From contig MU004238.1 of NCBI GenBank assembly GCA_010405405.1, forward strand, positions 197,530-261,529: DNA of 64,000 nucleotides. The letters are read 5' to 3'. The first letter of the stretch is position 1. The number at the start of each line of letters is the position of its first letter. Shown here piece by piece: positions 5,954-55,100 of this stretch. The position numbers and the translations under genes are program-made. The stretch is from Microthyrium microscopicum. Its lineage: Eukaryota. The notes under the pieces are model-generated. The model was not told the DNA's origin. It saw nothing but the letters and a program-made list of their open reading frames with translations, and ran no database searches.

Positions 5954-6593
5954 TTTGCAGGAAAGAAGAGGGAGTTAATTGTGGTGTAGGGTGGGTTATG
6001 GGGATGGTCGCAAATATAACTGGAAGAGCTTTGCTTTGATGGAGACTCAAAAAGTTTCGAAGGCAGGCACGCTTGGTCCGAGCTTCACGTGCCAACCAAC
6101 CTCAAATTTGATCTTTAACTTCATCCAATCTGCCTCACTCCACTGCCAAACTCTATGTCGGTTTTTCCTGCAATAAGTCTCGTCAATGCTTTCATTGAAC
6201 CCTGCGCATGATACAGCCTGAGTCAAGAATGATTAGAGGATGAAGAAATGCGGACGGACAGGCGATATATGTGCGCTCCCGTCGAGACTCGAGTGCCGTC
6301 CGCTACCAAAGGAAACATCATAGTCGACCATTCTTCTGTCAGGCAGGTATTGGCAGCAAGGCGACATATTGCATGCTGTACTGTTTTAACAGGTAGACGG
6401 AAGACTTGGCAGCTATCTGAAGTAGCCATCGCCCTTGCTAGGAGCATACAGTTCATTGTGTCTCCTGTCTCAATCATTCATTGCCTGCAATAATGACAGG
6501 ATAAACAAGAGTATACTAATGGCGAAGAAGAAGAAAATTGGACATCTGGTCATACGATAACATAACTTTCGATGGCAAATTGCTAATGGCTAT

Positions 6594-8705
6594 TTAGACA
6601 ATTCTAATATCTTCAACTGTAACACTAGTCTTCCAAGAACTAATGCCCAACATATTACGCGTTAAGAACGGCTCTGCAGCCATAACGCCATGCAAATAAC
6701 AATCTCCAACAAATCGGAATTCCATCCCACCAATGTTGCTCTCACCTTCAGCCTCTTCTGAATTCGTGTGTCTCAAAACATAAGGATGGAATCCTCCAAC
6801 AGTAGCAACAATCACGTCCCCAGCCTTCACTCCTCTAGCCTTCTCTTTCCGTTCCGTAAGAGAATCCAGGACGGAGGCAGCCTGTGGGTCTTGCTGCCTC
6901 AGGAACTGCTGAAAGCTAGCCATCATCATGCCGCCAAGTCCATCTGTAGGCAGTCCATCCATTGCCCCAATCATTCTCTCGTCCGCCTCGCCTGCCTCTC
7001 CTTCAGCTCGTGGCACTTCTTCAAACGCGGTCATGCCCGATCTACCGCTCTCTGTGGTGAAGAATCTACGGCCGATTGAATTTTTACGGAGAAGAATTTC
7101 GAAGGCTTCGGACTTTCCAGTCTGTGGGCCTAGTAGTTGGCATTGCGGATCGGCTTTGATTCGTTCGACCAGAGCAGGATCAATTGTGATATCTTCGGCT
7201 TTGCAGTTCATCAGTTCGAGGATGCGCTCTTCGGCGAGGATACTTTGAAAGGAGAGCCACATGTCTTTGTGGGGAGGCTTTTGCTGTCTCAGTGCTTGTG
7301 TTTCTCCGCCCGTGTTCATGACGATGGTTCGCCAGAACTTGTCAACTTTCTCTGCGAGTGGTTGGTTTGGGATGTTTGGAAGCCTTTGCCATTCTTGGAG
7401 GAGTAGTTTCCGGCAATTCTCCTGTGTAAACATTGGAGATACTGTTTTGACTTGATCCAATTTGTGGGCTTGGAGATGGAGAACATTTTCGATAACTTTG
7501 AGAGATTTCTGAGGTTGGACGGAGTCTGACCATGTGCGAAGGGATGGTTTAGCCTCATTGTTCATCTTAATGGTATGCAATGGTAAAGGAGCTGTCCAGT
7601 CTGGCACCCAGGATGGAAGACCTTCCATTTTGCGACCGTTCGGCGGCCGTTCAGCCCACCACAGAATGAGATCTTGTCGTTCTTCAATGATGAACTTTGC
7701 AGCCTCTGTAAAGACCTCTTGTGGCGTTTTGCTATAGTCCACCACCGGCTTGGGGACTTTTCTGCCCGTCTCCTGGGCACGCTTTGAAGGACGTGTTATT
7801 GGTAGCATGGCGAAGACGTACTCTCTGGGATCCGCGGACTTTGCCTCCTTCGCAGTCTGGATCATTGGCAGAAGCTCCAGACCATTATCTTCACGATATC
7901 GGCGGACTGCAATGTCTATTCCACTCACACGCTGAAAGGCTTCTTGTAGTGACTCTGATGGTATTTCTCCAAGCATTTGCGGCATAGCTACTACGAGAGC
8001 ACGAAAGGCTACTTTGAAGTCTATCCATGGAATTGACGACGAACGCGAGGTAATGAGGACGTCTTGGGATAACACGAGATCAGAAATGGTCTGTACCGAC
8101 TCAAAGTACGGGGACTCAAAAATCGCCAGCACAGAGCTCCACAGCTCTTTGTCGTTGAAGTGTAGTTTGGTCGCATCTTGGGCTCGGAAGTATGAAATGA
8201 TACTGCTCATATGGACTGCTGTAGCCTGTGCAAAGTTTGCAGGAAAGTCGCAGCGAACAGCGGCTTGATGCCACCATTGTGCTAGCGTTTTGACGATCTT
8301 GAATGCCTCTGAGGTTCTGTCGTTTCCAGATCCTAGGTAGGCAACAGTTTGCTGTGCGTTTTGTAGAGTTGCTCTAGCTAAATTGGCTTGCTCATTCTGC
8401 TCCTGGATAGTTCGCCCGAGGAGAACATCAGCCCAGAGTAGTAGGGATTCATCTGGTTTTCGGAGTGCTTGAAGCGCTTGTACTAATGGTCCTGATATTT
8501 CAGTTTCTTCATCATTCAGAAATATTTTCAGTGATTCGAATGTTTTCGAGCGATCGTATGAGATGCATTCGTAAGATAAATCTGTAGTGTGAAGATTGCT
8601 GAGGGAAACCTTGATGGGATCTGATGGTGAAGAACTTGGGTGTAGAACAGCAAGGCTCAGGTTGTAGTGAGAAAATAGAGAAGCAAATGGATTTTGAGAT
8701 TGCAT
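6594..8705 (-). CDS. HET (heterokaryon incompatibility, HET-6-like) domain protein with degenerate motifs
   Basis: 703 aa single ORF. HET-like YECISY and LLLWAD, then SADPREYVFAML, VDYSKTPQEVF, LPSWVPDW, RRFFTTESGRSG and FRFVGDCYLHGVM, typical of HET-6-like proteins. Confidence 0.78.
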   Translation of the reverse strand: MQSQNPFASLFSHYNLSLAVLHPSSSPSDPIKVSLSNLHTTDLSYECISYDRSKTFESLKIFLNDEETEISGPLVQALQALRKPDESLLLWADVLLGRTIQEQNEQANLARATLQNAQQTVAYLGSGNDRTSEAFKIVKTLAQWWHQAAVRCDFPANFAQATAVHMSSIISYFRAQDATKLHFNDKELWSSVLAIFESPYFESVQTISDLVLSQDVLITSRSSSIPWIDFKVAFRALVVAMPQMLGEIPSESLQEAFQRVSGIDIAVRRYREDNGLELLPMIQTAKEAKSADPREYVFAMLPITRPSKRAQETGRKVPKPVVDYSKTPQEVFTEAAKFIIEERQDLILWWAERPPNGRKMEGLPSWVPDWTAPLPLHTIKMNNEAKPSLRTWSDSVQPQKSLKVIENVLHLQAHKLDQVKTVSPMFTQENCRKLLLQEWQRLPNIPNQPLAEKVDKFWRTIVMNTGGETQALRQQKPPHKDMWLSFQSILAEERILELMNCKAEDITIDPALVERIKADPQCQLLGPQTGKSEAFEILLRKNSIGRRFFTTESGRSGMTAFEEVPRAEGEAGEADERMIGAMDGLPTDGLGGMMMASFQQFLRQQDPQAASVLDSLTERKEKARGVKAGDVIVATVGGFHPYVLRHTNSEEAEGESNIGGMEFRFVGDCYLHGVMAAEPFLTRNMLGISSWKTSVTVEDIRIV

Positions 8706-9877
8706 CTTGATTGAACTTGAGAAGTGGTAAACAGTTCAGGCGGACTGGCGGAAAATCTGAAGGGGCAAATGGCTCTTCTATCCTTTGCTTTGAGACCAGT
8801 ATGAGGCTAACTCTAATTTGTGGAGAGGGCCGATCTTGAAGCACAAGTTCGCGTCTCAACAACTATTTCATAAAGGAAGGTAGGAAGCAGGCTGCTGGTG
8901 TTTTGAAGGTAAAATGAAGAATAAATCCTTCTCTGCACTACTGATTCATTCCGAGACTCCAGGCTCCATCGCGACGAGACTTGAAAGGAACAGAGGATCG
9001 CCAGGCCCCAGAGGCCAGAGCACCCTGCCAAAATGGCGTTCGTATCTTGAAGTTTGAATCGTAATATTATTGGCTCACGAATAGGGGCAAACACTAACGA
9101 AAAATGTCAGTGTCTATAAATAGACATTTACTGTAATCCTCTTTCGTGAGAGAGCTTCGAGCAAGTCTTTCAGAGAAATGATATTGTCGAAGGTGAGGAA
9201 TCAAGGTGAAGTAATCCAAGTCTCGATGATATCTGAGCAAGAAAGTCTTGTACAGGCCCACCTTCTTCGAGTCATTCGCTCATTATTTAGACAAGTCCAG
9301 GTGTTCTTCTTGCGTCCAATGCTCCTTGGCTTTCGATGTTTTTGTCATTTAATCTTCAGTACTTAAACCTATACCCATGAGGCTCTGTTGACTTTCAAGC
9401 ATAAAATACTGTGAGCACCACGGGCGGTCCGGATGGCTGCGAAGTCGCTATATCAAAATCACGTAGTCCTTAGCATCCTTGGTATGTTATTATAGCTAAC
9501 ACTTTTTCGAGGGATAGGAAAGCAGACATCGCAAGACTTGTTGGAAGTCAACCTTCAGTATGCAACCCTTTAAATAGTTGCGTAGGAACCCAAAAGCACA
9601 GTCGACACAAGTATTCTCATATTCTATGTGAATAACATGCATTCTGTATGCTCCAATAGTTTGAAAATGCATCATCGAAACCGCTACCGGAGTCGCTCGA
9701 AAGATGCATTAATGCCATGCACTGATGCAAGGCTGAAGAACAACCACAAGGCTGAAAACCCCCCTGTCTTTGATCCGTGCAACTGCCCCAACAAATCGTC
9801 ATCGCGAACACCAACACAAGCAACACCACACCACAACCAAACTCTCCATAAGCACACAGCTAATGTAAACCATCAGC

Positions 9878-32442: not shown

Positions 32443-34972
32443 ATGGCCCAAGTCACAGACGCTCGTGTTGGCGACTATCTCGATGACAAGCTTCAAAGTC
32501 TAGCAGACCTTGAATCCTTGGATAGCCTGCTGCTCAGTGTTCGCAATCAGCAGAGTCTGCTCAAGTCGCAGCTAGAAAGCGCGCAGAAAGAGCTCAAAGA
32601 AGCAAAACAGGAATCTGTTCGCCATGGCACTACGCTCAATGCGAGCGTTAAAGCTTTCAACAAGGAGCAGGCCGACATCGATCGCCAGTTGATGCTCATC
32701 ACACAATCTGATACTAGCGATGAGGCGGCTCAAAAGTTCGAGGCGAGCATGGACAAGCTCAATAAGCTAAGTGTCGCCAAAGAATATGTTCGTTTGCTGC
32801 AAGATGTTGACACTTTGAGGTAAGAAGTTGTGACTTTCATTCTCTAGCTCTTCGCTGACATTCGTTAGTGATGACTGCATTTCACACCTTGGATCATCTG
32901 ATGCAGATGCTTTAGAGTCCTATTCTCGTATCCGTAAACTGCTGTCTGAACTAGAAGACCTACAAGTCACTGCTGAAGGCGCCGCGCCTCATCTCGTCGA
33001 CCATACCAAGAGCAAGACCTTATACCTAAGAGAACAGCTCGAAAAAGCGTATTCACGGCAGTTTGAAGATATACTGAAGGAGATATCATGGCCGAATCCT
33101 GATGGTGCTGTTTCTGAATCACAGCACGAACGGTTTGCAAGAGCAGTTTCCAAGCTCCTCGAGCTGCAATTACCAGAACTTGAAAAACAGGAGAAGCTGA
33201 ACGATGGAAGTCGAGCAGTGGAACCGCTGGTACTGTTTCCATTCAAAGTTATGATCAAACCGCTAGAATTGGGCTTTCGATATCACTTTGAAGGGGATCG
33301 GCCTACAAATCGTCTGGAACGTCCTGAATTCTTCCTTTCGCATGTTACGGAAAGAATACTTGCCAAATACATTGACTTTGTGGAGCACTATGTTCAGCCT
33401 GTTCTCCTTGAAAAGTTTCGAGGAACTGATCTTGCTCTGAACTATGCATACATAGACTCTTGCTCTGCCTTTATCACGTCGCTCCTTCCAATGGTTCGCA
33501 ACAAGATCTACTCGGTACTTCCACAAGTACTGAAGCAGCCACCTCTTCTGTCCCATCTTATCCACGAAGTTACCAAGTTCGATACCGAACTTCGTAACGA
33601 GTGGCAATATGACGGAGGATCACGCGGTCTTGTCTGGCATGGCTTGGCTTACGAAGTATTGTCCAAGGACGACGTTTTTGTTCAGTGGCTCAAAGTCGAG
33701 AAAGACTTTGCCCTCTCCCGCTATCAGGAAATCGTCGATGCATCTGATAGTTTTGATCTAGACTTCGATAGTTTGGGTGCTGGCAAGACCAAGCCGTCAA
33801 AAGCTGCTATCAGAGTCAATGATCTTCTGGAAGCTACAACGGACAACTACAAAGAGCTTGTGTCTTTTTCACAGAAACTACGGTTTTTGATTGATATACA
33901 AATAGCCATATTCGACCTCTTCCATGAGAGGCTTACTGAAGCACTGGGTGCCTATATTTCTCGTACATCTACCATCGGAAGAACTAGTCGAGAGGAACAA
34001 GCCAAACTACAAGGCATCGAGGGACTGGAACGCCTTGGACGCGTGTTCGGTAGCGCAGACTATCTGGAGCGAGCAATGAGAGATTGGAATGATGATGTGG
34101 TAAGTCAGATACTCGATATTCCCATGCCCGCGTACTAATTCACTTAGTTTTTCCTAGAAATGTGGTCCGAACTTCAGCATCGTGCCTCACTAGGAGCCTC
34201 AAACGCTATAGTCGCCGGCAACCTGACGATAGCGCAAGTAGCAGCCCGCACATCCAGCACAATCAACAACGACGAAGGCGACCAAGCTCAGTATGAAGAG
34301 GGCGCTTTATTTGATGAGACTGCTGCAGCATACATGCGTCTTCGCACCAGAACGGAGAGCATTATGACTGACCTCCTCACAAATAATGTGCGCCAGGCTC
34401 TTGGCCCATATTCTCGAATCAACCCTTGGGCTTCATTGTCGCCGGCTTCTACGCAAGCAAACGATGGCCCATTACCTCCTAATGCGGAGCTTGATGGTTT
34501 AATGCAAAGTCTGCGAAGTCTGCTATCTTATCTTGTGAGGGCAGTTGGTACTGCTCCACTAAGGAGACTTGCAAAACAAACATTACAAGCTATGGAGACT
34601 GTGATTTTTGATCAGGTTATTCTTGGTCATTCATTCTCCGGCGCTGGTACTGCGCAGTTGGCTGCAGACAATTCCGCGCTGCTGGGCCTGGTGTCGAAAT
34701 ATCTTGATGCTGGGACTATTGATATTGGGCTGGGTAGACTGAGCCAGGCAATAAGATTGCTTAGTATTCCAATCAAGGCAAGCAAAGCCCCAGAAGAGTC
34801 GGAAGATGATGCGGAGAACCCTGCCGACGTTGGACTCTTCGAGGTTGGAAAACGACTGTTCGAAGGTAGTGGAGAAGATGCCAAAAAGCTACTGGACGAT
34901 CTTGGTTTGGACCGCTTGAGCGTCGGAGAAGCAAGAAAGATCCTCGCCAAGCGCGTTGAACTGGGTAGTTAG
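32443..34972 (+). CDS. TIP20: Dsl1/NRZ tethering complex subunit Tip20/RINT-1, 3 exons
   Basis: DYLDDKLQS, FRYHFEGDRPTNRLERPEFF, QKLRFLIDIQI and WNDDV|FFLEMW motifs. Introns ~32820-32868 and ~34100-34148. Confidence 0.92.
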
Positions 34973-34988: not shown

Positions 34989-35696
34989 TCATCCGCCCTG
35001 CGTACTAGACCCAGCGTTCGCCATCCTCTTCAAATTCTCTTTCCTACCCGCCTTCCAAGTTTGATGCAATTCTTCAATCTTTCCACCCGCCACCGTGACA
35101 GACTTTGGTTCCAGCAGAATGACCCCACGAGCAACTGACACATCTCGCAGAACCAATTTACATCCTATGTGGATATTCATATTGATTCCCGTTACAGTAG
35201 ATAGTTCAAAGCCATAGACCCTCAACCCCTTTGCATCCTGCAAAAGCAGTTTATGTGGTCCAGATGACGGACTGGAAGTCTGCGTAGCCGATTGATCACG
35301 CTCAGCATCCTCCTCATCCCTCACCACCCTAACAATCTCCTGCCCCCTCGTCGTCTCTCCTCTCTCATCCGCTTCAATGGCTTCCAACTGGCTCCATCTA
35401 CTCTTGCCAATATCTTCAATGTCCATGACCTGTACTGGTATCGGTCCTTTCAAGAGACGTGATGTAATGTTGCCATTGAGAATATCCTGTGGGAAGATTG
35501 AAGATGGTGTAATCTGGATGGTGGATTGGAGGGAGGTGTTTAGGAGACGGATGTAGATTAGTTGTTTAGCGCCTTGGAGATGGATGTCGGGTTTGAGGGT
35601 TGCGAGGTTGGTGGTTAACCAGGTTGTGTTTGGGGTGAGGGATTTTGTGGCGAGGAAGGTTGTTATTTCTTGAATCAGTCTGGCATTGTTCGCCAT
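34989..35696 (-). CDS. RMI1: RecQ-mediated genome instability protein 1 (N-terminal OB-fold)
   Basis: GPIPVQVMDIEDIGKSRWSQLE, GPHKLLLQDAKG..VYGFE and IGCKLVL..V.VARGVILLEP..V...GGKI. Confidence 0.88.
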   Translation of the reverse strand: MANNARLIQEITTFLATKSLTPNTTWLTTNLATLKPDIHLQGAKQLIYIRLLNTSLQSTIQITPSSIFPQDILNGNITSRLLKGPIPVQVMDIEDIGKSRWSQLEAIEADERGETTRGQEIVRVVRDEEDAERDQSATQTSSPSSGPHKLLLQDAKGLRVYGFELSTVTGINMNIHIGCKLVLRDVSVARGVILLEPKSVTVAGGKIEELHQTWKAGRKENLKRMANAGSSTQGG

Positions 35697-35799
35697 TGGT
35701 AGCGCCGCTCTTTAGAGTTTTGGACTTGAATGTAATGTTGTCTAAACTGTAGCTTGGTTGTTGAAAGAACATTTGAAGATTATGAGTTAGGTCACGGGA

Positions 35800-35834: not shown

Positions 35835-35960
35835 CGCCACTTTAGCTCGATGACGATGAATTGACACCCCATAATTAAGCAACCGTGAGCATCAACAACT
35901 AATTTGATATGAGAGAGGATTGTCGTTGCTCATTTCTGTCATTAGCTTATACGCAGTACC

Positions 35961-38501
35961 ATGAGTAGCCCTGCGAAACGACGGAAGACGAACAAAGGTT
36001 CCAGCCAACCTGTCAAGAGCTTGGATTTCTTCTTCGCGAAACAAACTGCAAATGCTTCAGCTCAACATGTCCCGAAAATCGAGGCTGGAAAAACGGAACA
36101 GATATCGGATGAGCCCGTAGAGTTGACCGATGAGCAGCTAGCTCGAAAATTGCAAGCAGAGTGGGACCAGGAATCATCAGGACAGCAAGAGCAAGAACCG
36201 GAGACATTACCTTCAGAAGCTGCGGCATCCGTCAAAGAAGAACTCGAACCAGAAGCAACGATATCTGAAGCAGCCGATACGTTTTCTTTACGACCACCAC
36301 CAGCGAAATCGCACAATTTCCTAGCCCTTCAATCTTCGGCAACTGATGAAGATGCAATCACGTCGAATCTACCATTTGACGAGAGCCCTTTGACTTTTGA
36401 TCCTCAAAAATATATACCAGATCTTCAGCAACATTGGGCGGCGGACAAAGGACAAGCGACGTATGCTCTCTTAACGCGATGCTTCGTTTTGGTCAATGCG
36501 ACGACCAGTCGTATCAAGATTGTCGATACGCTAGTCAACATGCTCCGGATAATCATCGAAGCCGATCCAGACTCGTTACTAGCGGCAGTCTGGCTCGCAA
36601 CAAATTCGATATCGCCGCCATACATCGACCTAGAACTCGGTTTGGGAGGCTCCGCGATATCAAAGGCACTCAAGAAAACTTGCGGTCTCAATAATGAATC
36701 CCTTAGAACGCTTTCTAACAAATATGGAGATGCTGGAGATGTTGCATTCGAAGCAAAGAAGAGGCAATTGTTTACGTTGAAAAAACCAAAGCCACTGACA
36801 ATTCAAGCTGTATTTGATTCACTTGTCAAGATCGCGAAGAGCAAGGGCCAAGGAAGCCAGGAGGCAAAACAACGCATTGTGGAACGCCTCGTTTTGGATA
36901 CGAGAGGTGCCGAAGAAAGTCGGTATATAGTTCGAACCCTTGTGCAGCATCTGCGAATAGGAGCGGTAAAGACGACTATGCTGATCGCTCTTTCACGAGC
37001 ATTCCTACTCTCGAGACCAAAAGATGCGGAATTTCTGATCCGGCCCCAAAAGGAACTGTCAGCATTGAAGAAGGAGGAATTGACAGAAGTCTATCAAAAA
37101 GGAGAAGAGATCGTGAAGGCTAGCTTTGCAAGACACCCCAATTATGCTGATCTCATACCGGCACTTCTCGAAGTTGGGGTGTGTGATGAACTTTTACTTC
37201 GTTGTGGGTTGACTCTACATATCCCCATGCGACCTATGCTGGGAAGCATTACGCGAGATCTCAGTGATATGCTAGAGCGACTCAAAGGTAGAGATTTCTC
37301 ATGCGAGTACAAGTATGATGGCCAACGGGCCCAAGTTCACTGCGACGAAAAGGGCAAAGTTACCATTTTCTCTCGACATCTTGAACTTATGACCGACAAG
37401 TATCCCGATCTCGTGGACATAGTGCCCAAGATTCGCGGAGAAGGTGTCAGTAGCTTCATTCTGGAAGGTGAGGTCGTAGCAGTGGATAGCAATACGGGCG
37501 AACTCAAAACGTTTCAGGCATTGTCCAATCGAGCAAGAAAGGATGTTGAGTTACATGCCGTCACGGTCAATGTCTGTCTATTCTCATTCGATTTGATGTA
37601 TCTAAACGGTGAAGAGCTCATGGATCGACCATTTCGAGAACGCAGAAGCCTATTGAAGAGTCTATTCATCGAGGTCCCCAACCGCTTCACCTGGGTCAAG
37701 AATCTAGATGCCATCTCCACCGATTCAGACGCCGTACTCGATTTCTTCAAGTCAGCCACAGAAGCGAAATGCGAAGGCATAATGGTCAAAGTCCTCGACA
37801 ACCAACCCGACGAAGAAGTCATCGAAGAACCCACTGCACCACAAACTCCAACTAAATCCAAAACTAAGAAGAACGCCTCGAAGAAACTGACCACGACCAC
37901 CTCCGAACCAACGAAGAAAGGCAGCCGCCGTAAAGCCCTCCTGTCTACGTACACTCCAGACAAACGTCTAGAATCCTGGCTCAAAGTCAAGAAAGACTAC
38001 GCCACGTCCGCCGACACCATCGACCTTATACCAATCGGCGCCTGGCACGGCTCAGGCCGCAAAGCTGCTTGGTGGTCGCCCATCTTGCTCGCAGCACGCA
38101 ACCCAGACACTGGCGCTCTTGTAGCCGTGACGAAATGTATGAGTGGGTTCACTGATGCTTTCTACAAGGCGAATCGAGCAAAGTATGATCCTGGTGGAGA
38201 CAATGTCATATCGCGGCCGGCGTATATTGATTATGCGGGTGAGCCAACCGTGTGGTTTGCGCCGCAGGAGGTTTGGGAGGTGGCTTTTGCAGATATAACG
38301 ATGAGTCCGACGTATAATGCAGCTCTTGGTTTGGTGAGCGATGAGCGTGGGCTTAGTCTGCGGTTCCCTCGATTCTTGAGGACTAGGGAGGACAAGAGTA
38401 TTGAGGAGGCAAGTACGGAAAGCTTCTTGGCTGATCTATGGTTCAAGCAAGCCGAGAAAGCACCTGCTAAAGAAGTTGAAGCTGAAGACGATGAGGAGTA
38501 G
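35961..38501 (+). CDS. ATP-dependent DNA ligase, ligase I family paralog (S. pombe Adl1-like rather than Cdc9-type)
   Basis: Adenylation motif EYKYDGQRAQ, FILEGE, EGIMVK, WLKVKKDY and SLRFPRF, with the DNA-binding domain present. Confidence 0.9.
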   Translation: MSSPAKRRKTNKGSSQPVKSLDFFFAKQTANASAQHVPKIEAGKTEQISDEPVELTDEQLARKLQAEWDQESSGQQEQEPETLPSEAAASVKEELEPEATISEAADTFSLRPPPAKSHNFLALQSSATDEDAITSNLPFDESPLTFDPQKYIPDLQQHWAADKGQATYALLTRCFVLVNATTSRIKIVDTLVNMLRIIIEADPDSLLAAVWLATNSISPPYIDLELGLGGSAISKALKKTCGLNNESLRTLSNKYGDAGDVAFEAKKRQLFTLKKPKPLTIQAVFDSLVKIAKSKGQGSQEAKQRIVERLVLDTRGAEESRYIVRTLVQHLRIGAVKTTMLIALSRAFLLSRPKDAEFLIRPQKELSALKKEELTEVYQKGEEIVKASFARHPNYADLIPALLEVGVCDELLLRCGLTLHIPMRPMLGSITRDLSDMLERLKGRDFSCEYKYDGQRAQVHCDEKGKVTIFSRHLELMTDKYPDLVDIVPKIRGEGVSSFILEGEVVAVDSNTGELKTFQALSNRARKDVELHAVTVNVCLFSFDLMYLNGEELMDRPFRERRSLLKSLFIEVPNRFTWVKNLDAISTDSDAVLDFFKSATEAKCEGIMVKVLDNQPDEEVIEEPTAPQTPTKSKTKKNASKKLTTTTSEPTKKGSRRKALLSTYTPDKRLESWLKVKKDYATSADTIDLIPIGAWHGSGRKAAWWSPILLAARNPDTGALVAVTKCMSGFTDAFYKANRAKYDPGGDNVISRPAYIDYAGEPTVWFAPQEVWEVAFADITMSPTYNAALGLVSDERGLSLRFPRFLRTREDKSIEEASTESFLADLWFKQAEKAPAKEVEAEDDEE

Positions 38502-38620: not shown

Positions 38621-39945
38621 CTAGTCCAGGCAAGTCGTGTTGAAAAGACGATGGCCGGTGTCTGTGGTTCCCTTTCTAGTGTACTTGGTCTTAGAAAATC
38701 ATAGTGTCACCAGACTCAAATTTGGATCATCCATGAGCAACTTGGCCAACTTGCCTTCCTTGCTTGCCCGTTTCCGGACGACGCCAGCAACCACTACCAT
38801 TCGAATCTTAGCATCCATACTACCAACGTGGTGCACGAACTTGACCACAGACTTGCCCGTGTTTAACCCGGAGTCCGCGAGCAATACAGTACTCTGAGAC
38901 TTGACTTATTGGGGCGTAAGAACCTCAACGTTCTTCGCGTCGACAAACTGTCCAGAAGGAAATGCATCACTGACGCCAAAAGCCAGAGGTTCCACGCGTA
39001 CCAGGGGCACGATCAGAGCTGAAGTATCACATCGAAGTTGGTAACCATCTGCTGACTTACCTTGTACGTGTGGAATGGCATAATATTCAAATCCAATGAG
39101 CTCAGTCAGGAATTGTGTTGTCAGGTAGCGTCTTGTCCGCATCGGAAACACAAATCCTTTGAATAGTACCTTCACGCCACAAAGAAAACGCAAAGTGACT
39201 AAGCTTGAACTCGGTATGTCCCATGAATAGCTGCTTAGCGCTCGGCTATTCCAGTCTCGAGAGGTATACTTGGAGTTGGTGAAAGTACAAAAAGTGGTAT
39301 ACCATGATTGTCGCACTCACGTTGCAGTTCTTCTTTCTCACAGTCGTTCCATGTGCGTAACTGATCCACAGACAACGAGCCTCGTCGTCGATGCGAATCA
39401 TTTCTGCGCTGAGCATGAATCACTTCGGCCGGAATGTCAAGAAAAAACATATGCGTATATGTCTCCCAGTCACTGTCCGTCAGTACCGTCTTTGTAGTAC
39501 CTGAATCCTCGTCCCAGGCCATGTATTGCCCTGCGACATAGCCCATCTTTTTACTCTCGGCGCATTCAGATTGTACTTTTTGGATGGCTGCTTTGCGATA
39601 GAACGATTTGGATGCTTCATCAAGCTCTTCGAACCTTTTCAACCCACCAGGAACGATTCCATCAAGCACCTCGGAACCTTCATAGAAGTTGCAGCGACAC
39701 ATGTCACGCTCCTTCAGTTTACCAAGAATGTATGATTTGCCTGACCCTGGAACGCCGAATATGCCAAGCACTGAAGGCTTGTCTCCGGAAGACTTTGACA
39801 AAGGGAAGTAGGATCCCATTGGACCAGACTCGTGTTTCGATTCTGCCGGCGATTCGGCTGACATGAGGTTAATTGGCTTGAAAACGGCAGAAATGGTTCG
39901 ACGCGTTGTTTCTCGATTCTGGAAGTAGAACTCAACAATGTTCAT
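38621..39945 (-). pseudogene. Disrupted P-loop kinase / HAD / uracil-phosphoribosyltransferase fusion gene
   Basis: Walker A GVPGSGKS in ORF 39945-39235. HAD motif-I remnant DADKTL at 39143-39126 in another frame. UPRTase-like remnant (IPHVQG, EPLAFGVSDAFP, VLLADSGLNTGKS, TDTGHRLFNTT) broken by stops at 38908-38906 and 38701-38699. Confidence 0.8.
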
Positions 39946-40706
39946 GGTTATACACTATGGTCTGGCACAACAGGAAACCAGGAGACGTCCAGCTTGGCTT
40001 TATAGCACCATAAAGAAGATTCTTGTCATAGCCAGCCACAACGATAGGTTTGATTCCTCAAATGACCCGAGCTATCTCAGCTGGCAATGTGGAGCTGACT
40101 GCTGCAAGTTCCTTTTACGTGAGAAGAAGTCTACATTCTCGACATCATGTCGTCTTAATCAGACCCGTGATAACTACAAGTTCAATGAAATTGACACTTG
40201 ATCGCGAATGGTATGCTATGGCCATGACCATTGGTCTACACATGATGAAAATGGAAAAACTAGTCGCTCTTAATTTCTAATTCAAGCTTCACGTGGAAAC
40301 GGCGTACGGAAACCAAAGTCATATGATCAGATAGCTGTACCGGACCTCGAAAATTGTCAAAATCGCGAGGCCGCGAGCAATATCAGTCCGATAGTGACCA
40401 GACTGTTGTGCTTGTGGTGATTATTCAGAAGCAAGAGCAGTGTTTATGAGACGATACGGAATATCATAGGAAGTCTTTTAATCCAAAAATGCCACAAGGT
40501 TGCATAATGAAGATTCTAGAATACGATGATCCGACGCGGGAAGTACATGGTTCACCTCAAAGACATCCACCTCGAACAAAGTGAAGTCTGTTACTATGGA
40601 AGTAGGTACTTGTAGAAATCTATGCCCAGGGGAGCTCCAAAAAGAACACCTACTCATTTCCCTCGACTTGCTTACGCGAACAAAAATCTGGATCTACCCC
40701 CAAAAA

Positions 40707-41168
40707 ATGAGTTCCAAAATGAACACCCTCCTACGTCCTTTCCATCGCGCCCTCGGTCTTCCAAGCCAGTCATCTACGTCCTGGTATCGAGCTCGACTTC
40801 GCGAAGAGCTTGAGGAACGCCGACAAGCTACAACCTTCTGGCACAAAATTAGCGAGACTTCAGACGTTCTATACACTATAAGCCGCGCCGAGTACGATGG
40901 CCACCACGTGCGCAATCTACCGCCATTCTCTGTTTCTCGCCACACGCTTCCTTACGCTTATATGGTTGGAAAATTTACATCGCGGCGGATCTTCTATCGA
41001 ACCTCAGCTATGCTATGTGGCGCGCCGAAGCCTCATCTGGTACGCGAGGTTGTGAATCCCATCAGAGACATCAAACTCGAGCAGGTGGCTTCTCGCCATG
41101 GAATCAATCCAGATAAATTCAAACATGTTGGACACCAGTTACTCAAGGTTTGGCCACTTCTTCCATGA
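40707..41168 (+). CDS. Uncharacterised 153-aa fungal protein with a MazG-like all-alpha NTP-pyrophosphatase motif
   Basis: Intact ORF with LREELEERRQA...KISETSDVLY (EExxE..ExxD spacing) and C-terminal VREVVNP..D.KL..VA.RH.I.P...WPLLP. Confidence 0.7.
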   Translation: MSSKMNTLLRPFHRALGLPSQSSTSWYRARLREELEERRQATTFWHKISETSDVLYTISRAEYDGHHVRNLPPFSVSRHTLPYAYMVGKFTSRRIFYRTSAMLCGAPKPHLVREVVNPIRDIKLEQVASRHGINPDKFKHVGHQLLKVWPLLP

Positions 41169-42639
41169 AGCATTTGCTTCAACCCCCGGCGGGACCCTTT
41201 CAACGCGAAGCAAGATACTGGACTTCCTATTTTTCCAATGCAAGCCAATCGCCAGCACAGGAGCCATGAAGACAAAGAATACCAGTCATCCCGAATGAAG
41301 GACGACGAAGCGCAAGTAGAGTTCTCTCTGACCTAAAGTTAGCCTCCAGAGCAATACTGCCTCGGAGCTAGTAGAATCCGCAGATTCTTTACTTACTGCA
41401 ATTTCGGTTCTCACAGCGAACTGGATTGCCAAATTTATATTTGAGTTTAACGCTCTAGCAGAACCAATTAAATACCAGGACACTTTATGGATGGGCCAAG
41501 ACCCGAAGGGCGAAGGACATGACAAGCTATCAGCCTTGCTACGGATTGGCGTGTGGTTTTCACTCTCAAAATAGCAAATATGAAGTCACACTTTGCATTA
41601 ATCGTCTTTCGCAGGAACGTTTCTAACAACACTGCCTTGCATAGCGCTTAGGGGACTAGTGTCGTTGCTCGCCGTCCCTGGTATCTCTTAATTGCCCTAA
41701 ATATAACCTTCTTGGCCATCGTGTTGCTCATTGTAAGTTGCAACTGCTCAGATTGACAGACATGGCTTTGTCTTGGGGCTAATTTATGGCAATTCGCGCA
41801 AGACATCATTTCTTGGGTGATCTAGACCACTAAATTTTGACAACGACTTTCGGCTCGTAGGTAGAGTGCTTTGGTCGATCAAGGATATCAACTCAATCTT
41901 GAAAGACTTAGTAGTTTGAACAAAGATATTTTCATATTGAAGAGAATTTCGGCCTAGGTGGTCGTATCAGCATTGGACCCAACCTGTACAAATCCAGTTT
42001 GTCTGTAGCTGTTGTCACTAGGAGTCTGCAAAGCTGCTAGATAATAGATTGCACTGTGTGCTAGTTGATACCCTACAGAGCCGCAAAGTGCCTCGATCTA
42101 GAGTTGAACTATCATGCCACCACATCTCCAAGAGCCGCACTCCATTAGGTCTGTTGCCTGCAAACCCGGTTGTCCGGTACTTGGCGTTGGCCTAGATCAT
42201 ATCTGCCAGCTTTGCCAAGTGAGCATCACCATTTCTATCGGTCTGGGATCTTGTCACTAGTGTCAGCTGTCCCATGATATATCGCTATTGGGGGTCAACA
42301 GTTCTGTGTCGACTCCATTCATCCATTCTGCTTCCGGTGCGGAGAGCGAAATTCGTAAATATGTCTGGTTCTAATTCTAGATATAACGAGATCTAGGGTC
42401 ATCTCTGGGAATCAATGACCCCAGTTGGTCGATCAAGTCGCAAACTCGGCCAGAATGAAGTATGCGCTACAGGAAGATCCTTATATACCGGATGTTGCTT
42501 GTCGCGAATGCTTGGCGATGTGGCTTCTCTGATGTATAAAAGAGTTGAGCGCGTCGTGAACATTGAGCAGAATTTGTTTCAACAAACACAAACACAAATC
42601 TATCTTCATATCATTCATTTTCAAACCTATCCTGTCGCC

Positions 42640-43257
42640 ATGAAGAACCTTATTTTTGCCTTGCTCTCTGCCATCGTCCTAGCAGCACCGCTCGATACCC
42701 CAAATCAGGTCACCATTGAGCAAAGCAGTCATTCCGGAAATGGTTGTCCTCAGGGCAGTGTCAGCAGCATAATTTCCGGCGACAAAACATACATCACATT
42801 TGGCTTCGATCGGTTCAACGCAGCAATTGGCCCTCGAGCGAACCCAAACGACAAACAGAAGAGCTGCCAGCTCCATCTCAGCCTCCGCTATCCGCAAGGG
42901 TTTCAGGTCGCGCTTATGACGGCCACCTATCATGGCTGGGTCCGTCTAGATTCAGGTGTCACTGCTAATTTCATCTCGTCCTACTACTTCTCTCACGCGG
43001 CATCAAACACAGCTAGTTCCCGCACTACGCTAAGCGGCGGCGAGTTTAAGAACGGGAAGTCATACACAAAAGAAGACAAGATTGAGAACGCCGCGACGGT
43101 CTGGTCACCTTGTGGAGCTAATGGTATATTGAACATCAATAACCGGATTGCCTTGAACTCCAACAACCAGCAAGCGCAGGGAGAGATCTCCAATGATGAT
43201 GCGACCATCAAATTTGAGCACAAGCTGCTCCTTCAGTGGCGACGTTGTAATCAGTAG
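42640..43257 (+). CDS. Secreted DUF4360 family protein
   Basis: Signal peptide MKNLIFALLSAIVLA, then SGNGCPQGS, KSCQLHLSLRYPQGFQ, VWSPCG and LQWRRC. Confidence 0.88.
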   Translation: MKNLIFALLSAIVLAAPLDTPNQVTIEQSSHSGNGCPQGSVSSIISGDKTYITFGFDRFNAAIGPRANPNDKQKSCQLHLSLRYPQGFQVALMTATYHGWVRLDSGVTANFISSYYFSHAASNTASSRTTLSGGEFKNGKSYTKEDKIENAATVWSPCGANGILNINNRIALNSNNQQAQGEISNDDATIKFEHKLLLQWRRCNQ

Positions 43258-51064: not shown

Positions 51065-52109
51065 GCTTGGCTAGCTCCTGAAGGATATTCCCCGTTTTAT
51101 ACAAAATTGAAAATCTAATCCGAGGCGATCATGTCCATGAAGGGTTCTTGTGTGAGTTGAGATGAGGAAGTAGAATGGAAAACGATCTTGCCGTTTGAGC
51201 GGGGAAGAAGAAGTAGAAGGATTATTCGTAAATCTAGATCATTCAGCCTGATGAACTATCTTTGCCTCCGCTTCTAAGCCTCTTTCTTACTCGTCGTGCT
51301 TCCAAGCTACATGCATGCGAGGGACAAACAAGGTGCCATGCAGATGCGCGACAAAGAGATGGTGCATTTCCGACTTTTGAGCCAATAACCGAATATAATC
51401 AATCTTTTGTGCTGGCAGTTTTGATAGCAGATTACGGGCCTGAGATAGTGTCTCTGCCATTCAGCCTGATGCCAAGATCTTTGCTAAGTACTAAGCAAAG
51501 AGGACAAGAAGTCAAGCCGGCCTTCGGAGTTCAAGAGAGAAATATTTAATCGCTTCTTCACTCCATACAGCCTGTTAAGGTCGCATAATGCAGAGAACCA
51601 TTTCAGCCGCAGTTTTGGTTGTTGATTCGAGTCGAGCAATCTAATGGACTGTAGGGGCTTTCGGTTCCTGAATGATATTCAAGTAGGGAAACTGGTCAAG
51701 AGAGCAGCTGCATCATTTGATATTGTCGAAGCCAATCTCGAGGCGTGAAGCAACGAAATGGCGCAGGATCGGGACCGCAATCCTGCTCAGCCTAGCTCTT
51801 GCTTTTACATATCTCGCTGATCAGTTTTCAGTCCAGATATTAACTTTGCATGCGGGTAGATTATCACTTGTATGTTTTCTTCTTGATCTCCCATTGGTAT
51901 ATATTGTGTGTGAGGGAAGTTCGAGCTGTTGTAAGATTATCTCCATGTCGAGGAGCAGAATGTCGTTAAGAAGCATCGACCAATCACATTACAAGAGATA
52001 GGCTTTTTCTTCCTTGCAAAAACATAATACCTCTGGTGTGCATTCTATCCCCTAGACCCTAGTTTTTGACGCAGATTTTTACCTGCTTTAGCTCCACATC
52101 TAATTGGAT

Positions 52110-55100
52110 CGAGATCTAGAACTAAAGAGCACGTTAGTATATAAATTTGTATATAATTAAACTATTAGATCCTCTAGTTTTATAGTCCTACTATTAGTCT
52201 CTAATCCTAAACCTTAAATATTAACGTTTTAGTATTATAATAAATAGTATATAAAATAATAAATCCTAATAATTTAGCTACTATTTTAAAGCCTAAAGAG
52301 AGCTTATTTTCTCTATCTTATAGTAATTACTATATAATTATTAGTATTAAATCTTATCTTTATTATCTTTAGTACCTATTATAATATCTAGAAAACGCTT
52401 AGTATTAGTAGATCTTAACTCTAACGTATCTCTATAATAAGAACTTTAACCTATAAAGAAGCTTACTATACTTATAGAATTAGCTTTAAGAATACCTATA
52501 GGCGTACCTATATAGATATTGCTAAAATTATACTAAAATAGGCCTAATCTTCTCTTCTAAGCTCTATCTAATTTACTACCTAAATCTCTACAAAATATAT
52601 TAATCTTAAAGTTGTTTTATACCTAAAATTCCTTATAGAGCACTTTATAAATAATAGTTCCTTACTCTTTAGTACTAAGTTAAGTAGTAGAGACGTAAGG
52701 GCCGTTATTTTAACTAATAGATAGTTCTTCTAATAATTCTATTAATTTAATTAGCTTATACCCTACTTTTTAAGTAAAGCTTTATTTAACAAAGTAGATA
52801 CTAACTAGTAAGAATAAATCTATACTAAACTGCTATAATTTTAAAGCCTTTAGTAGTATTAAAAATACGTAGAGACGTATAATTAAATAGTAAGATTAGA
52901 GAGCTAAAGAATAGTTCTATTTTATTAGTTCTAGCTTCTTAATTTAAATATTATTAAAGCTTTTTATTAAGAACACTATAAGAGATTCTAAGATAGTATA
53001 GGCTATTTAATCTAATCCTATATCTAAAGAATTATAAAATAAGCTTCTTAAAGTTTAATAAAAGGTATTAGAATATATAAAGAGAATTCGTATAGAGAAG
53101 CTAAAAATTAAGCCTATTTAGGATATATCTTAGTTAGTTAATAAAGTTAAATTAGGTCCTATAGCTTTAGGAATAGTAGAAGATCTTAAGAAGTTAAAGG
53201 AAGCTAAAGAAGCTACTTAAGACTTATAGGATACTGTTGCTAGCGCTTTAATTAAATTAAATAAGCTAAAGAACTTATATAAATAGTAGCTTAAGTTATT
53301 AGATAAATATACCTACTATAAGAAAAAATATCTAATAGCCTATAATAAGGGATACTACTTAATTCTAATATTAAATAATAAGTATATTCCTATTTTACTA
53401 GTAGTACTAATAGATTAAGTAGTAATAATAGCGAATAAACCTACTATCGTTATAAAATATTAACTACTACTAGAGATACTAACGCGTATTTTAAAGCTAA
53501 CGTTAAGTAATTAATTTAAGAAGAATATACACTTTTAACGATTAAATAAGAGTAGTAGTAGTAGTAATTTTAATAGTAATAACGTATATTTTGGCTTTAA
53601 ACTAAAGGAGATTTAGGCCGTTCTAGTAAAGAGTAGTACTATGGCGTTAGGACCTTTAGATATTAAAAATATTAATATTTTATCTACTATCTACGTTTTG
53701 CTACTACTACTATTAAAACTAATTAAATTTAATCCTAATAAAGAGATTAAGGACTTTAAGGACTAGATATTCCTACGTATTAGTATAAAGACGTTATAGA
53801 ATATTTAAATTGTACTACTATTAAAAGTATATTAAAGTAAGTATATAAGATTAGGTTAGGTAGTAGTAGTAGAAGATAATATCTTTATACGCGCGTTAAA
53901 ATACGTTAAGATAAACGCTATAGATTACTTTAAGCTATAGATTAGGAAATAGTATACTTAATATCTAGAATTAGAAAAAGAGAGAGGACGATAAGAAGCT
54001 TAGATTAAGATAGATTAATTAAATATTATATATTAAAGTTATATAGATTTATTTTACTCTTTTTAAAGTATATTTTTGCTCTCTATACTATATTTAATTC
54101 CTAAAGACCTAAATTAAGATATTACTTAAAGAGCTATTTATACTCTTTTACGTCGTTCTAGATATAATTATTTAATTAAATCTATTTCTTTAAATTACTA
54201 AATAGTTACTTAATTAGATTTAGATTAGGGCTATAAGGTAGTAGAAACAATAAGATTATACCTATAGCTTTAAAAAAAGGCTTTAGCTCTCTAGCCTTAT
54301 AAAAGAAAGCGTTATCTATAATTATAACGCTATTAGGCTAAGAGAATAGTAATATTTTCTTAATTAACTACTCTTTGTACTAAAAGGTAAATCTAGAACT
54401 ATTAGTATTATATTAATATAGATCTTAGTATAAAATACTATATATATTATATATAAGTAGTATATTTTATTACTTAGAGCTCTAAAGATATAAGAAGTTA
54501 ATATATTTAACTCTCTTTAAGCTCTAGCCTATTCTATATACTAGTAATCCTATTCTATAGCTAGATTTATTAATATAGATAAGTTAATTAAGATAGTATT
54601 TTAGGATTTCTTCTTAATATTTTTTATATTCGTATAAAGACTATTAAAGAGCTATTTTATAATACTATTTTTATTAGAAAAGATTAAATATTAATAAAAT
54701 AAAGGTATAGTAACGATACCCTCTTTTTAGTTTATTTTATACACTTTAGCGTGCGTCCTATCTTATAATAGCTAATAGAAACGTTAAAGATATCTTCTAG
54801 ATATTCTAATATTTTAAATTATATAGAATTAGGCTTTATCGTAAAATATTTAAGTAGTACTACTATTTTAGTATAATCTAATATAGGTACTTATTAAATA
54901 ACTCTAGGAATATTAAATAAAGTAGTAATTTTAAGCTTCCTATACTAATATAATACTATATTAGGATAGCATTTAGCTACTTTAGCAATCTAAGAAATAG
55001 AATACTTCTTAATAATTATATCTTAAACCTATTAGTATTATAATTAACTAATATATTTGTCTATATTTAACGATATATTAATTAGTAGTAAGCACGCTTC

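Follow-up and report, generated by a model that had tools for sequence, protein, structure and literature searches.

Eukaryotic fusions of uridine kinase and UPRTase, such as yeast Urk1, plant UKL, and human UCKL1, join a PRK-type nucleoside kinase to a UPRTase-type domain in one pyrimidine-salvage-like polypeptide. The all-alpha nucleoside triphosphate (NTP) pyrophosphatase superfamily, to which MazG, PRA-PH, and the all-alpha dUTPases belong, is marked by the metal-binding motif EXXE-(12 to 28)-EXXD on adjacent helices. Here, we describe a fungal locus in which genes reminiscent of both systems are neighbors. The window is a stretch of 64,000 nucleotides from Microthyrium microscopicum (GenBank assembly GCA_010405405.1, contig MU004238.1, positions 197,530 to 261,529 of the forward strand), and all coordinates are those of this stretch. 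Its minus strand carries the pseudogene of a fungal protein of approximately 690 amino acids (aa) that combines a P-loop kinase domain (AAA_17), a HAD domain, and a UPRTase domain (the large gene). Its plus strand carries a divergent, intact gene for a MazG-like all-alpha protein (the small gene). With moderate confidence, we read the locus as one copy of a two-gene nucleotide module that is conserved in fungi and half dead here. The features are listed in Table 1.

The association of the two genes is not peculiar to this fungus. A relative of the small protein is encoded in 68 metagenome loci, all of which were collected through the small gene, and 48 of these are of the fungal type (41-64% identity). 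Of the 48, 38 have the large gene as a neighbor at a distance of 39-1341 bp, and the recurrent linkage of the two families supposed in the first-pass annotation of this DNA is therefore real. The small gene precedes the large gene in tandem in 22 loci and follows it in 4, and the genes are convergent in 10 and divergent, as in the window, in 2. The annotation had also called the pair co-transcribed; this is wrong for divergent genes, and all four orientations occur across the loci. Single-linkage clustering at 90% small-protein identity reduces the 48 loci to 22 clusters, and the pair is found in 14 of them. Because many contigs come from related samples, the number of independent lineages is nearer to 14 than to 38. 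There is no third conserved gene. No other cluster of open reading frames (ORFs) is common to more than four locus groups, and thus the conserved unit consists of exactly two genes. Adjacency in many fungi means that both genes probably act on the same nucleotide.

The large gene is missing from 10 of the 48 loci. Six of these are contigs with less than 1.5 kb on each side of the small gene (L006, L007, L009, L037, L046, and L048), and the other four (L001, L002, L027, and L047) lack the large gene although at least one flank extends to 6 kb. The small gene of L047 carries three stops and is a pseudogene. L001 and L002 contain an intact small gene, 63% identical to that of the window, and represent natural small-gene-only genomes.

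Among the database proteins, P0002 and P0023 share the length of their longest contig, as do P0016 and P0028, and this would suit a location of each pair on one contig. Four other proteins (P0054, P0075, P0106, and P0133) join both families in one sequence. They were rejected as proof of physical coupling, as they look like merged gene models or decayed copies: in P0054, the last residues of the small protein are dropped and a Met-led N-terminus of the large protein follows, P0075 additionally has a SUR7 domain, and P0106 and P0133 are fragmentary. The joined proteins count only as further cases of adjacency.

The small gene was confirmed as the divergent, intact 153-aa ORF with the EELEE..ETSD residues named in the first-pass annotation; 842 bp separate it from the position where the pseudogene probably starts. 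If translation began at M5 instead, the protein would have 149 aa. A search of a database clustered at 90% identity returned 22 relatives (E 7e-37 to 6e-97), one of which is the protein of the window itself, and those with names are hypothetical proteins of Tothia, Tuber, Trizodia, Sodiomyces, Metarhizium, and Penicillium. An exhaustive profile search found 220 representatives of the family at E <= 0.001 among 1.84 billion. With so many relatives, the small ORF is a real gene and not a chance ORF. In the searches made, the family was found only in Pezizomycotina-type fungi and in loci mostly titled Patescibacteria, apart from one Streptomyces contig.

Conservation in this family is concentrated on the acidic motif. 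W26, R30, R32, E33, E34, E37, E50, D53, R60, K89, R93, E114, and N117, among others, are invariant in the 22 fungal sequences. A mixed alignment of 20 fungal and bacterial sequences, 12 of which are Patescibacteria-type sequences with approximately 30% identity, retains E34, E37, E50, D53, K89, R93, E114, and N117 without exception. The acidic residues on which a MazG assignment had been based are therefore conserved in both sets. They form the arrangement E34-x-x-E37, 12 residues, E50-x-x-D53.

The AlphaFold model of the small protein (pLDDT 90.2) is all-alpha with six helices, and the acidic residues lie on the consecutive helices 24-40 and 44-63. When this model was compared with 48,161 chains by VIA-align, 15 of the top 25 rows were MazG, PRA-PH, all-alpha dUTPase, or pyrophosphatase entries (Z 5.0-7.3 over 49-117 residues). 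Examples are 5myd (Z 7.3, 95 residues), which is an entry on dimeric and trimeric dUTPases, 1vmg (Z 6.5), 3c90 and 1yvw (both Z 5.8), and 2yay (Z 5.6, 117 residues). Further neighbors from the superfamily are 2yxh, 2gta, 3cra, and 7ody, and the rows 6j22 and 2p06 presumably belong to it as well. The structural support that this model comparison offers lies in the enrichment of superfamily rows and not in any single row. Among the Foldseek rows from BFVD that fall above E 0.001, several are named NTP-PPase, MazG, or dUTPase. In the ESM Atlas, the first named clusters beyond those of the family itself (0.80-0.83) are labeled PRA-PH and dATP/dGTP pyrophosphohydrolase; this serves as a lead only.

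Profile-profile comparison places the motifs in register. Alignment of the small family by hhalign with 24 canonical MazG sequences collected from Patescibacteria genomes gave a score of 25.8 (E 0.0017), with EELxE on EExGE of MazG, SExSDV on EELGDVL, and KYTxR on K..R. A reversed alignment scored 14.1, and the score was reached by none of 100 column shuffles (maximum 16.6) and by 2 of 100 shuffles of seven-column blocks. The protein resembles MazG, PRA-PH, and the all-alpha dUTPases in its all-alpha architecture, in EExxE and ExxD motifs on two consecutive helices 12 residues apart, and in a conserved Lys and Arg on a later helix. It differs from them in that hidden Markov models (HMMs) of those families do not detect it, and in approximately 60 extra C-terminal residues with an invariant EVxNP motif of their own. 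None of the 22 members matched Pfam, including MazG (PF03819) and PRA-PH (PF01503), even at E <= 10, and the small protein therefore falls outside both families as now defined. Matches of its profile to the sequences of the Protein Data Bank (PDB) were at chance level (HMM search, E approximately 1). We consider it likely that the small protein belongs to the all-alpha NTP pyrophosphatase superfamily as a very divergent member, and we predict that it is a metal-dependent nucleoside-triphosphate pyrophosphohydrolase. For the MazG-like fold of the first-pass annotation, helical architecture, structural neighbors, and motif register give modest support, and neither Pfam MazG nor Foldseek at E <= 0.001 gave a match. 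Residues 90-153 of the small protein are also weakly similar to the HAD cap domains 2hi0, 4ex7, 2hsz, 2ah5, 3qu2, 3d6j, and 3kbb (VIA-align Z 4.6-5.2). This likeness may be notable as the partner gene has a HAD domain, but the helical arrangement may be generic.

The anatomy of the pseudogene was determined by tblastn with the intact 704-aa relative P0023, and its defects were also evaluated relative to P0025 and P0028. The Walker A motif, HAD motif-I remnant, and UPRTase-like C-terminus reported by the first-pass annotation were all recovered on the minus strand, and its term "decayed" is justified by stops, frame changes, and a deletion. The kinase part remains open for 209 codons from the likely start ATG and includes the Walker A motif GVPGSGKS. 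It matches Pfam AAA_17 (E 4.4e-12, 46.9 bits, cut-off 27), and residues 22-220 of P0023 align to 39804-39226 with 49% identity (E 1e-51). Two residues invariant in the family, H110 and F113, are replaced (GQYMAW versus GHFMFW). Its AlphaFold model (pLDDT 82.8) is similar to the archaeal adenylate kinases 7owe, 1nks, and 6pk5 (Foldseek E approximately 1e-9, TM 0.6-0.78). Given this match and the Walker A motif, the domain looks like a nucleoside monophosphate (NMP) kinase, the fold to which it had been assigned at first.

A premature TAA, aligned with a Trp of the intact relative, ends the kinase frame, and a frame change separates it from the HAD remnant. This remnant, IQRICVSDADKTL, aligns with residues 250-262 of P0023 (LERILVFDADKTL) at 69% identity. 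The match alone has only E 4.9 (tblastn); the remnant sits in the correct order between the kinase and UPRTase remnants. Immediately thereafter, residues 263-535 of P0023 (approximately 273 codons) are missing. The deleted segment comprises HAD motifs II-IV and the linker, so that the PF12710 motif set I-IV (DxDxT, S/T, K, GDxxxD) is incomplete in the window and only motif I (DADKT) is retained. At the junction, DADKTL ends and YLTTQFLTELIG begins on shared bases, with the two codons read in different frames. Part of the UPRTase remnant still passes the Pfam UPRTase model (PF14681, 33.5 bits, cut-off 27). Despite this domain score, its reading frame is not intact; it is interrupted by two in-frame stops, and the invariant RGG loop is one codon short. 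Given its three premature stops, its frame changes, and the deletion of the HAD core, the three-domain gene is dead here, and there is therefore no working pair at this locus. None of the three checks named in the first-pass annotation, on the fold, the acidic residues, and the linkage, refuted its idea; the proposed module is supported in part, by its recurrence elsewhere, and does not apply as a functioning pair to this locus.

The intact relatives show what has been lost. Nine of the 11 longer relatives carry UPRTase, HAD, and AAA_17 domains (615-707 aa), and the other two (385 and 557 aa) have no UPRTase match. Named relatives come from Tothia, Neonectria, Scedosporium, Letrouitia, and one Xylariaceae species. 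In the metagenome loci, the large gene is one uninterrupted, intronless ORF of 625-723 codons. Intact relatives pass the Pfam HAD model and score 132-134 bits with UPRTase (PF14681). The Walker A residues, the HAD residues D242-x-D244-x-T246, K379, and G398-D399-S400-x-x-D403, and, in the phosphoribosyltransferase (PRTase) part, the RGG loop, the phosphoribosyl pyrophosphate (PRPP) motif DSVxNxG, and the C-terminal TDTGxRLFNTT are invariant or nearly so in 20 aligned large proteins. Because of this conservation, all three domains of the intact protein look catalytically equipped, as judged from their motifs.

Like the uridine kinase-UPRTase fusions, the large protein fuses a P-loop kinase to a UPRTase-type domain. 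Its kinase, however, matches AAA_17 and the archaeal adenylate-kinase fold and not a PRK-type nucleoside kinase, a complete HAD phosphatase domain lies between kinase and UPRTase, and the UPRTase domain is far from canonical upp. With bacterial UPRTase (upp), it shares a full-length C-terminal domain with the RxG loop, the PRPP motif, and the GxxDxGxRLF motif, and the alignment with the Thermotoga maritima enzyme (1o5o) is end to end (E 8e-9). It differs in having DSVVNSGK in place of DPMLATGV, and the window copy is a pseudogene.

Decay of the large gene has been repeated elsewhere, as it is truncated or broken in nine metagenome loci. In L012, it has four stops and ends near residue 250. Only residues 1-100 remain in L020, residues 1-146 in L040, and residues 1-108 in L043 and L044. 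L016, L019, and L034 have one stop each, and L024 has a frameshift. Single stops in metagenome contigs may be assembly errors, which does not apply to the truncations. Beside these broken genes, the small gene is free of stops except in L012 and of full length except in L043 and L044, where residues 1-142 were matched. A dead large gene next to a live small gene, the same state as in the window, is thus a repeated outcome, seen in at least four loci.

A second group of small proteins, approximately 30-35% identical, was found in metagenomes as well as in prokaryotic genomes, the latter with 79 loci. The titles of most of these 79 loci name Patescibacteria lineages (Nomurabacteria, Paceibacterota, Saccharibacteria, and Uhrbacteria), with a few other binning labels. 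L147, a 461-bp contig titled Streptomyces actuosus (31% identity, residues 6-113), is the only prokaryotic match clearly outside Patescibacteria-type records and may either stem from contamination or represent a stray member. In Patescibacteria, no gene is a constant neighbor of the small gene. Within three genes, NUDIX proteins are the commonest neighbors (clusters in 7 and 5 loci, and two further 3-locus clusters), followed by Ham1/ITPase (6 loci), EamA (6 loci), and YjjX-type NTPase_I-T (4 loci). Dihydroorotate dehydrogenase lies directly upstream of the small gene in one locus. On L061, a contig of the Patescibacteria type, a gene for a YjjX-type NTPase (NTPase_I-T) is flanked by two copies of the small gene (6004-6429 and 8324-8758), which lie approximately 2 kb from each other. 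A tree of 22 fungal and 86 bacterial small proteins, built with a quick method, separates two groups by one long branch (SH-aLRT 100). The tree gives no direction of transfer, since neither group lies within the other.

In the mechanism that we infer from these data, the enzyme activities and their substrate are predictions, as is any direct interaction of the two proteins. The PRTase domain would load a uracil-like base onto PRPP to give an NMP, and the kinase domain would push the NMP towards the diphosphate and then the triphosphate. The HAD domain could strip the NMP to the nucleoside, and the small partner would cut the corresponding (d)NTP to NMP and pyrophosphate. As a result, a non-canonical or excess nucleotide would neither build up nor enter nucleic acids. 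At the window locus, only the small enzyme could still work. Since the small gene survives loss of the large gene and stands alone in Patescibacteria near NUDIX and Ham1, this suggests that the enzyme is also a general house-cleaning enzyme, working alone.

Several observations weigh against the module and its mechanism. No large gene accompanies the small gene in any bacterial locus or in L001, L002, and L027, where at least one flank reaches 6 kb, so the partnership is not obligatory. The large protein was unmatched in five Patescibacteria genomes that carry the small gene, an empty answer that shows little. For the small protein, there was no match to Pfam, NCBIfam, PHROGs, or PADLOC models (four small proteins in the case of PADLOC), and Foldseek gave none at E <= 0.001 in PDB and BFVD. 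The VIA-align Z values of up to 7.3 are of a size for which the tool itself warns of frequent chance matches between helical bundles, and the hhalign probability was just 15.5%. The UPRTase domain of the large protein scored 36.8 bits against the TIGR01091 equivalog cut-off of 208 bits and has GNR where canonical UPRTs have GDR; because of both, uracil as the base is a guess. The order of the steps is speculative, because the kinase and phosphatase activities predicted for the same polypeptide might cancel each other in a futile cycle.

The same divergence of the UPRTase domain could indicate that the pair makes a natural product, a modified nucleoside or nucleotide, as a small biosynthetic cassette. 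In such a cassette, the PRTase would ribosylate an unusual base, the HAD domain would remove the 5'-phosphate, and the kinase and MazG-like enzyme would trim or protect intermediates. A nucleotide kinase and a PRTase-type domain are likewise found together in the fungal cordycepin/pentostatin genes. The named relatives are from scattered Pezizomycotina, the family is rare for the size of the database, and copies are often lost, all of which would suit a cassette. However, neither a transporter, a tailoring enzyme, nor a regulator is conserved with the pair, the window flanks are housekeeping genes, and the bacterial members lie beside house-cleaning and not biosynthetic genes, which makes a cassette unlikely. 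Frequent loss of the large gene could also be explained by a conflict or toxin-safeguard system, in which the large enzyme makes or depletes a nucleotide harmfully and the small pyrophosphatase is the antidote. In one form of this idea, the large enzyme would turn a base or an environmental base analogue into a potentially lethal non-canonical nucleotide, the MazG-like partner, from a family otherwise nearly confined to ultra-small Patescibacteria, would be a dedicated antidote, and lineages would repeatedly lose the enzyme and retain the antidote; we rate this form as improbable. An antidote would be expected to outlive its enzyme, as in the window, L020, and L040, and in L043 and L044 with their matched residues, and the pair is kept together in all four orientations; a marginal match of the PRTase domain to the PADLOC model PRTase_III-A (P0023, E 4e-5) would also fit. 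PADLOC, however, is blank for the small protein, and its matches to the large protein (PRTase_III-A and mad8) are only marginal, generic PRTase-motif ones, the best being that of P0023. No sensor, NLR-type, or mobile-element gene is linked, and the small gene is also alone in bacteria. The defense or antimetabolite role suggested by the first-pass annotation found no direct support, and a safeguard system in general appears just as improbable.

The absence of significant matches to MazG models by HMM or Foldseek would agree with a non-enzymatic small protein, that is, a helical regulator, chaperone, or subunit of the large enzyme in which EExxE..ExxD serves another purpose, and the weak HAD-cap likeness could hint at an interaction with the HAD domain. 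Four acidic residues together with Lys, Arg, Glu, and Asn are nevertheless invariant down to approximately 30% identity in organisms without the large protein, the motif register matches that of MazG, and the bacterial neighbors are NUDIX, Ham1, and YjjX-type NTPases. We give little credence to a non-enzymatic role. Adjacency could finally be inherited synteny devoid of functional meaning, since related samples supply many of the contigs and the loci collapse to far fewer clusters. Four orientations are kept with variable gaps, and the flanks are not shared among locus groups; meaningless synteny is therefore very improbable. The two-gene nucleotide module remains our preferred reading of the locus.

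The region around the locus, with a GC content of 0.45-0.51, is an ordinary fungal chromosome segment. Flanking ORFs of at least 200 aa encode RINT1/TIP1, RMI1, DNA ligase I, a DUF4360 protein, an MFS protein, and eIF3. No mobile-element-type gene was found among them, although no search was aimed at a Starship captain. The Starship association that the first-pass annotation proposed to check finds no support in these neighbors, and the housekeeping genes among them speak against an accessory region. RINT1/TIP1 occupies two adjacent ORFs, the first matching profile positions 1-280 and the second 280-514; a short intron most likely accounts for the split. The DUF4360 ORF, 1.2 kb downstream of the small gene, has a signal-peptide-like start (MKNLIFALLSAIVLAAPL). 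Further away, a block of very low GC content (0.21-0.25 versus approximately 0.46 elsewhere) is typical of a repeat island of filamentous fungi degraded by repeat-induced point mutation.

Table 1. Coordinates of the two genes, their parts, and neighboring features in the window
Feature	Position	Strand	Remarks
RINT1/TIP1	32834-34969	+	Housekeeping neighbor; ORFs 32834-34135 and 34148-34969
RMI1	34992-35711		Housekeeping neighbor
DNA ligase I	35946-38498		Housekeeping; end approximately 120 bp from 3' end of pseudogene
Pseudogene of three-domain protein	39864-38624	-	Kinase (AAA_17), HAD, UPRTase
Natural stop of pseudogene	38623-38621	-	
UPRTase-domain remnant	38624..39127	-	P0023 residues 536-704, 60% identity, E 4e-53 (tblastn)
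In-frame stop TGA	38701-38699	-	In UPRTase remnant
Piece passing PF14681	38702-38905	-	In UPRTase remnant
In-frame stop TAA	38908-38906	-	In UPRTase remnant
Deletion junction	39126..39127	-	P0023 residues 263-535 missing
HAD motif-I remnant	39126..39164	-	DADKTL at 39143-39126; frame differs from kinase part
Premature TAA	39235..39237	-	Ends kinase frame
Kinase-domain remnant	39238..39864	-	Likely start ATG at 39864
Walker A GVPGSGKS	39756-39733	-	In AAA_17-matching ORF
Divergent intergenic region	39865..40706		842 bp, pseudogene to small gene
Small gene	40707..41168	+	153-aa intact ORF (stop included); MazG-like all-alpha protein
Alternative start M5	40719	+	149-aa form
EELEE	40803-40817	+	Residues 33-37
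ETSD	40854-40865	+	Residues 50-53
DUF4360 protein	42397-43254	+	Full DUF4360 domain, E 4.9e-62
Low-GC block	52001-55000		

A full-text literature search, which covered papers outside subscription, found no description of the family or of the pairing. Within that body of literature, the statement that the pairing is undescribed in fungi holds. The superfamily and each of the domains have been described before. The small-protein family, its occurrence in both fungi and Patescibacteria, and its pairing with the large gene appear to be new to the literature.

For the window alone, the significance is modest, as it comprises one pseudogene and one intact gene with a predicted function only. If confirmed, the small protein would add a new family to the MazG-type house-cleaning enzymes, one that current family models do not detect and that, in the searches made, is common only to Pezizomycotina fungi and Patescibacteria. 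The finding would also define a tightly linked fungal pair of an NMP kinase-HAD-UPRTase protein and an NTP pyrophosphatase. With two intronless genes, the pair is small enough for direct testing. It could be relevant to the fate of base analogues in fungi, pyrimidine antimetabolites among them, or to the synthesis of an unusual nucleoside.

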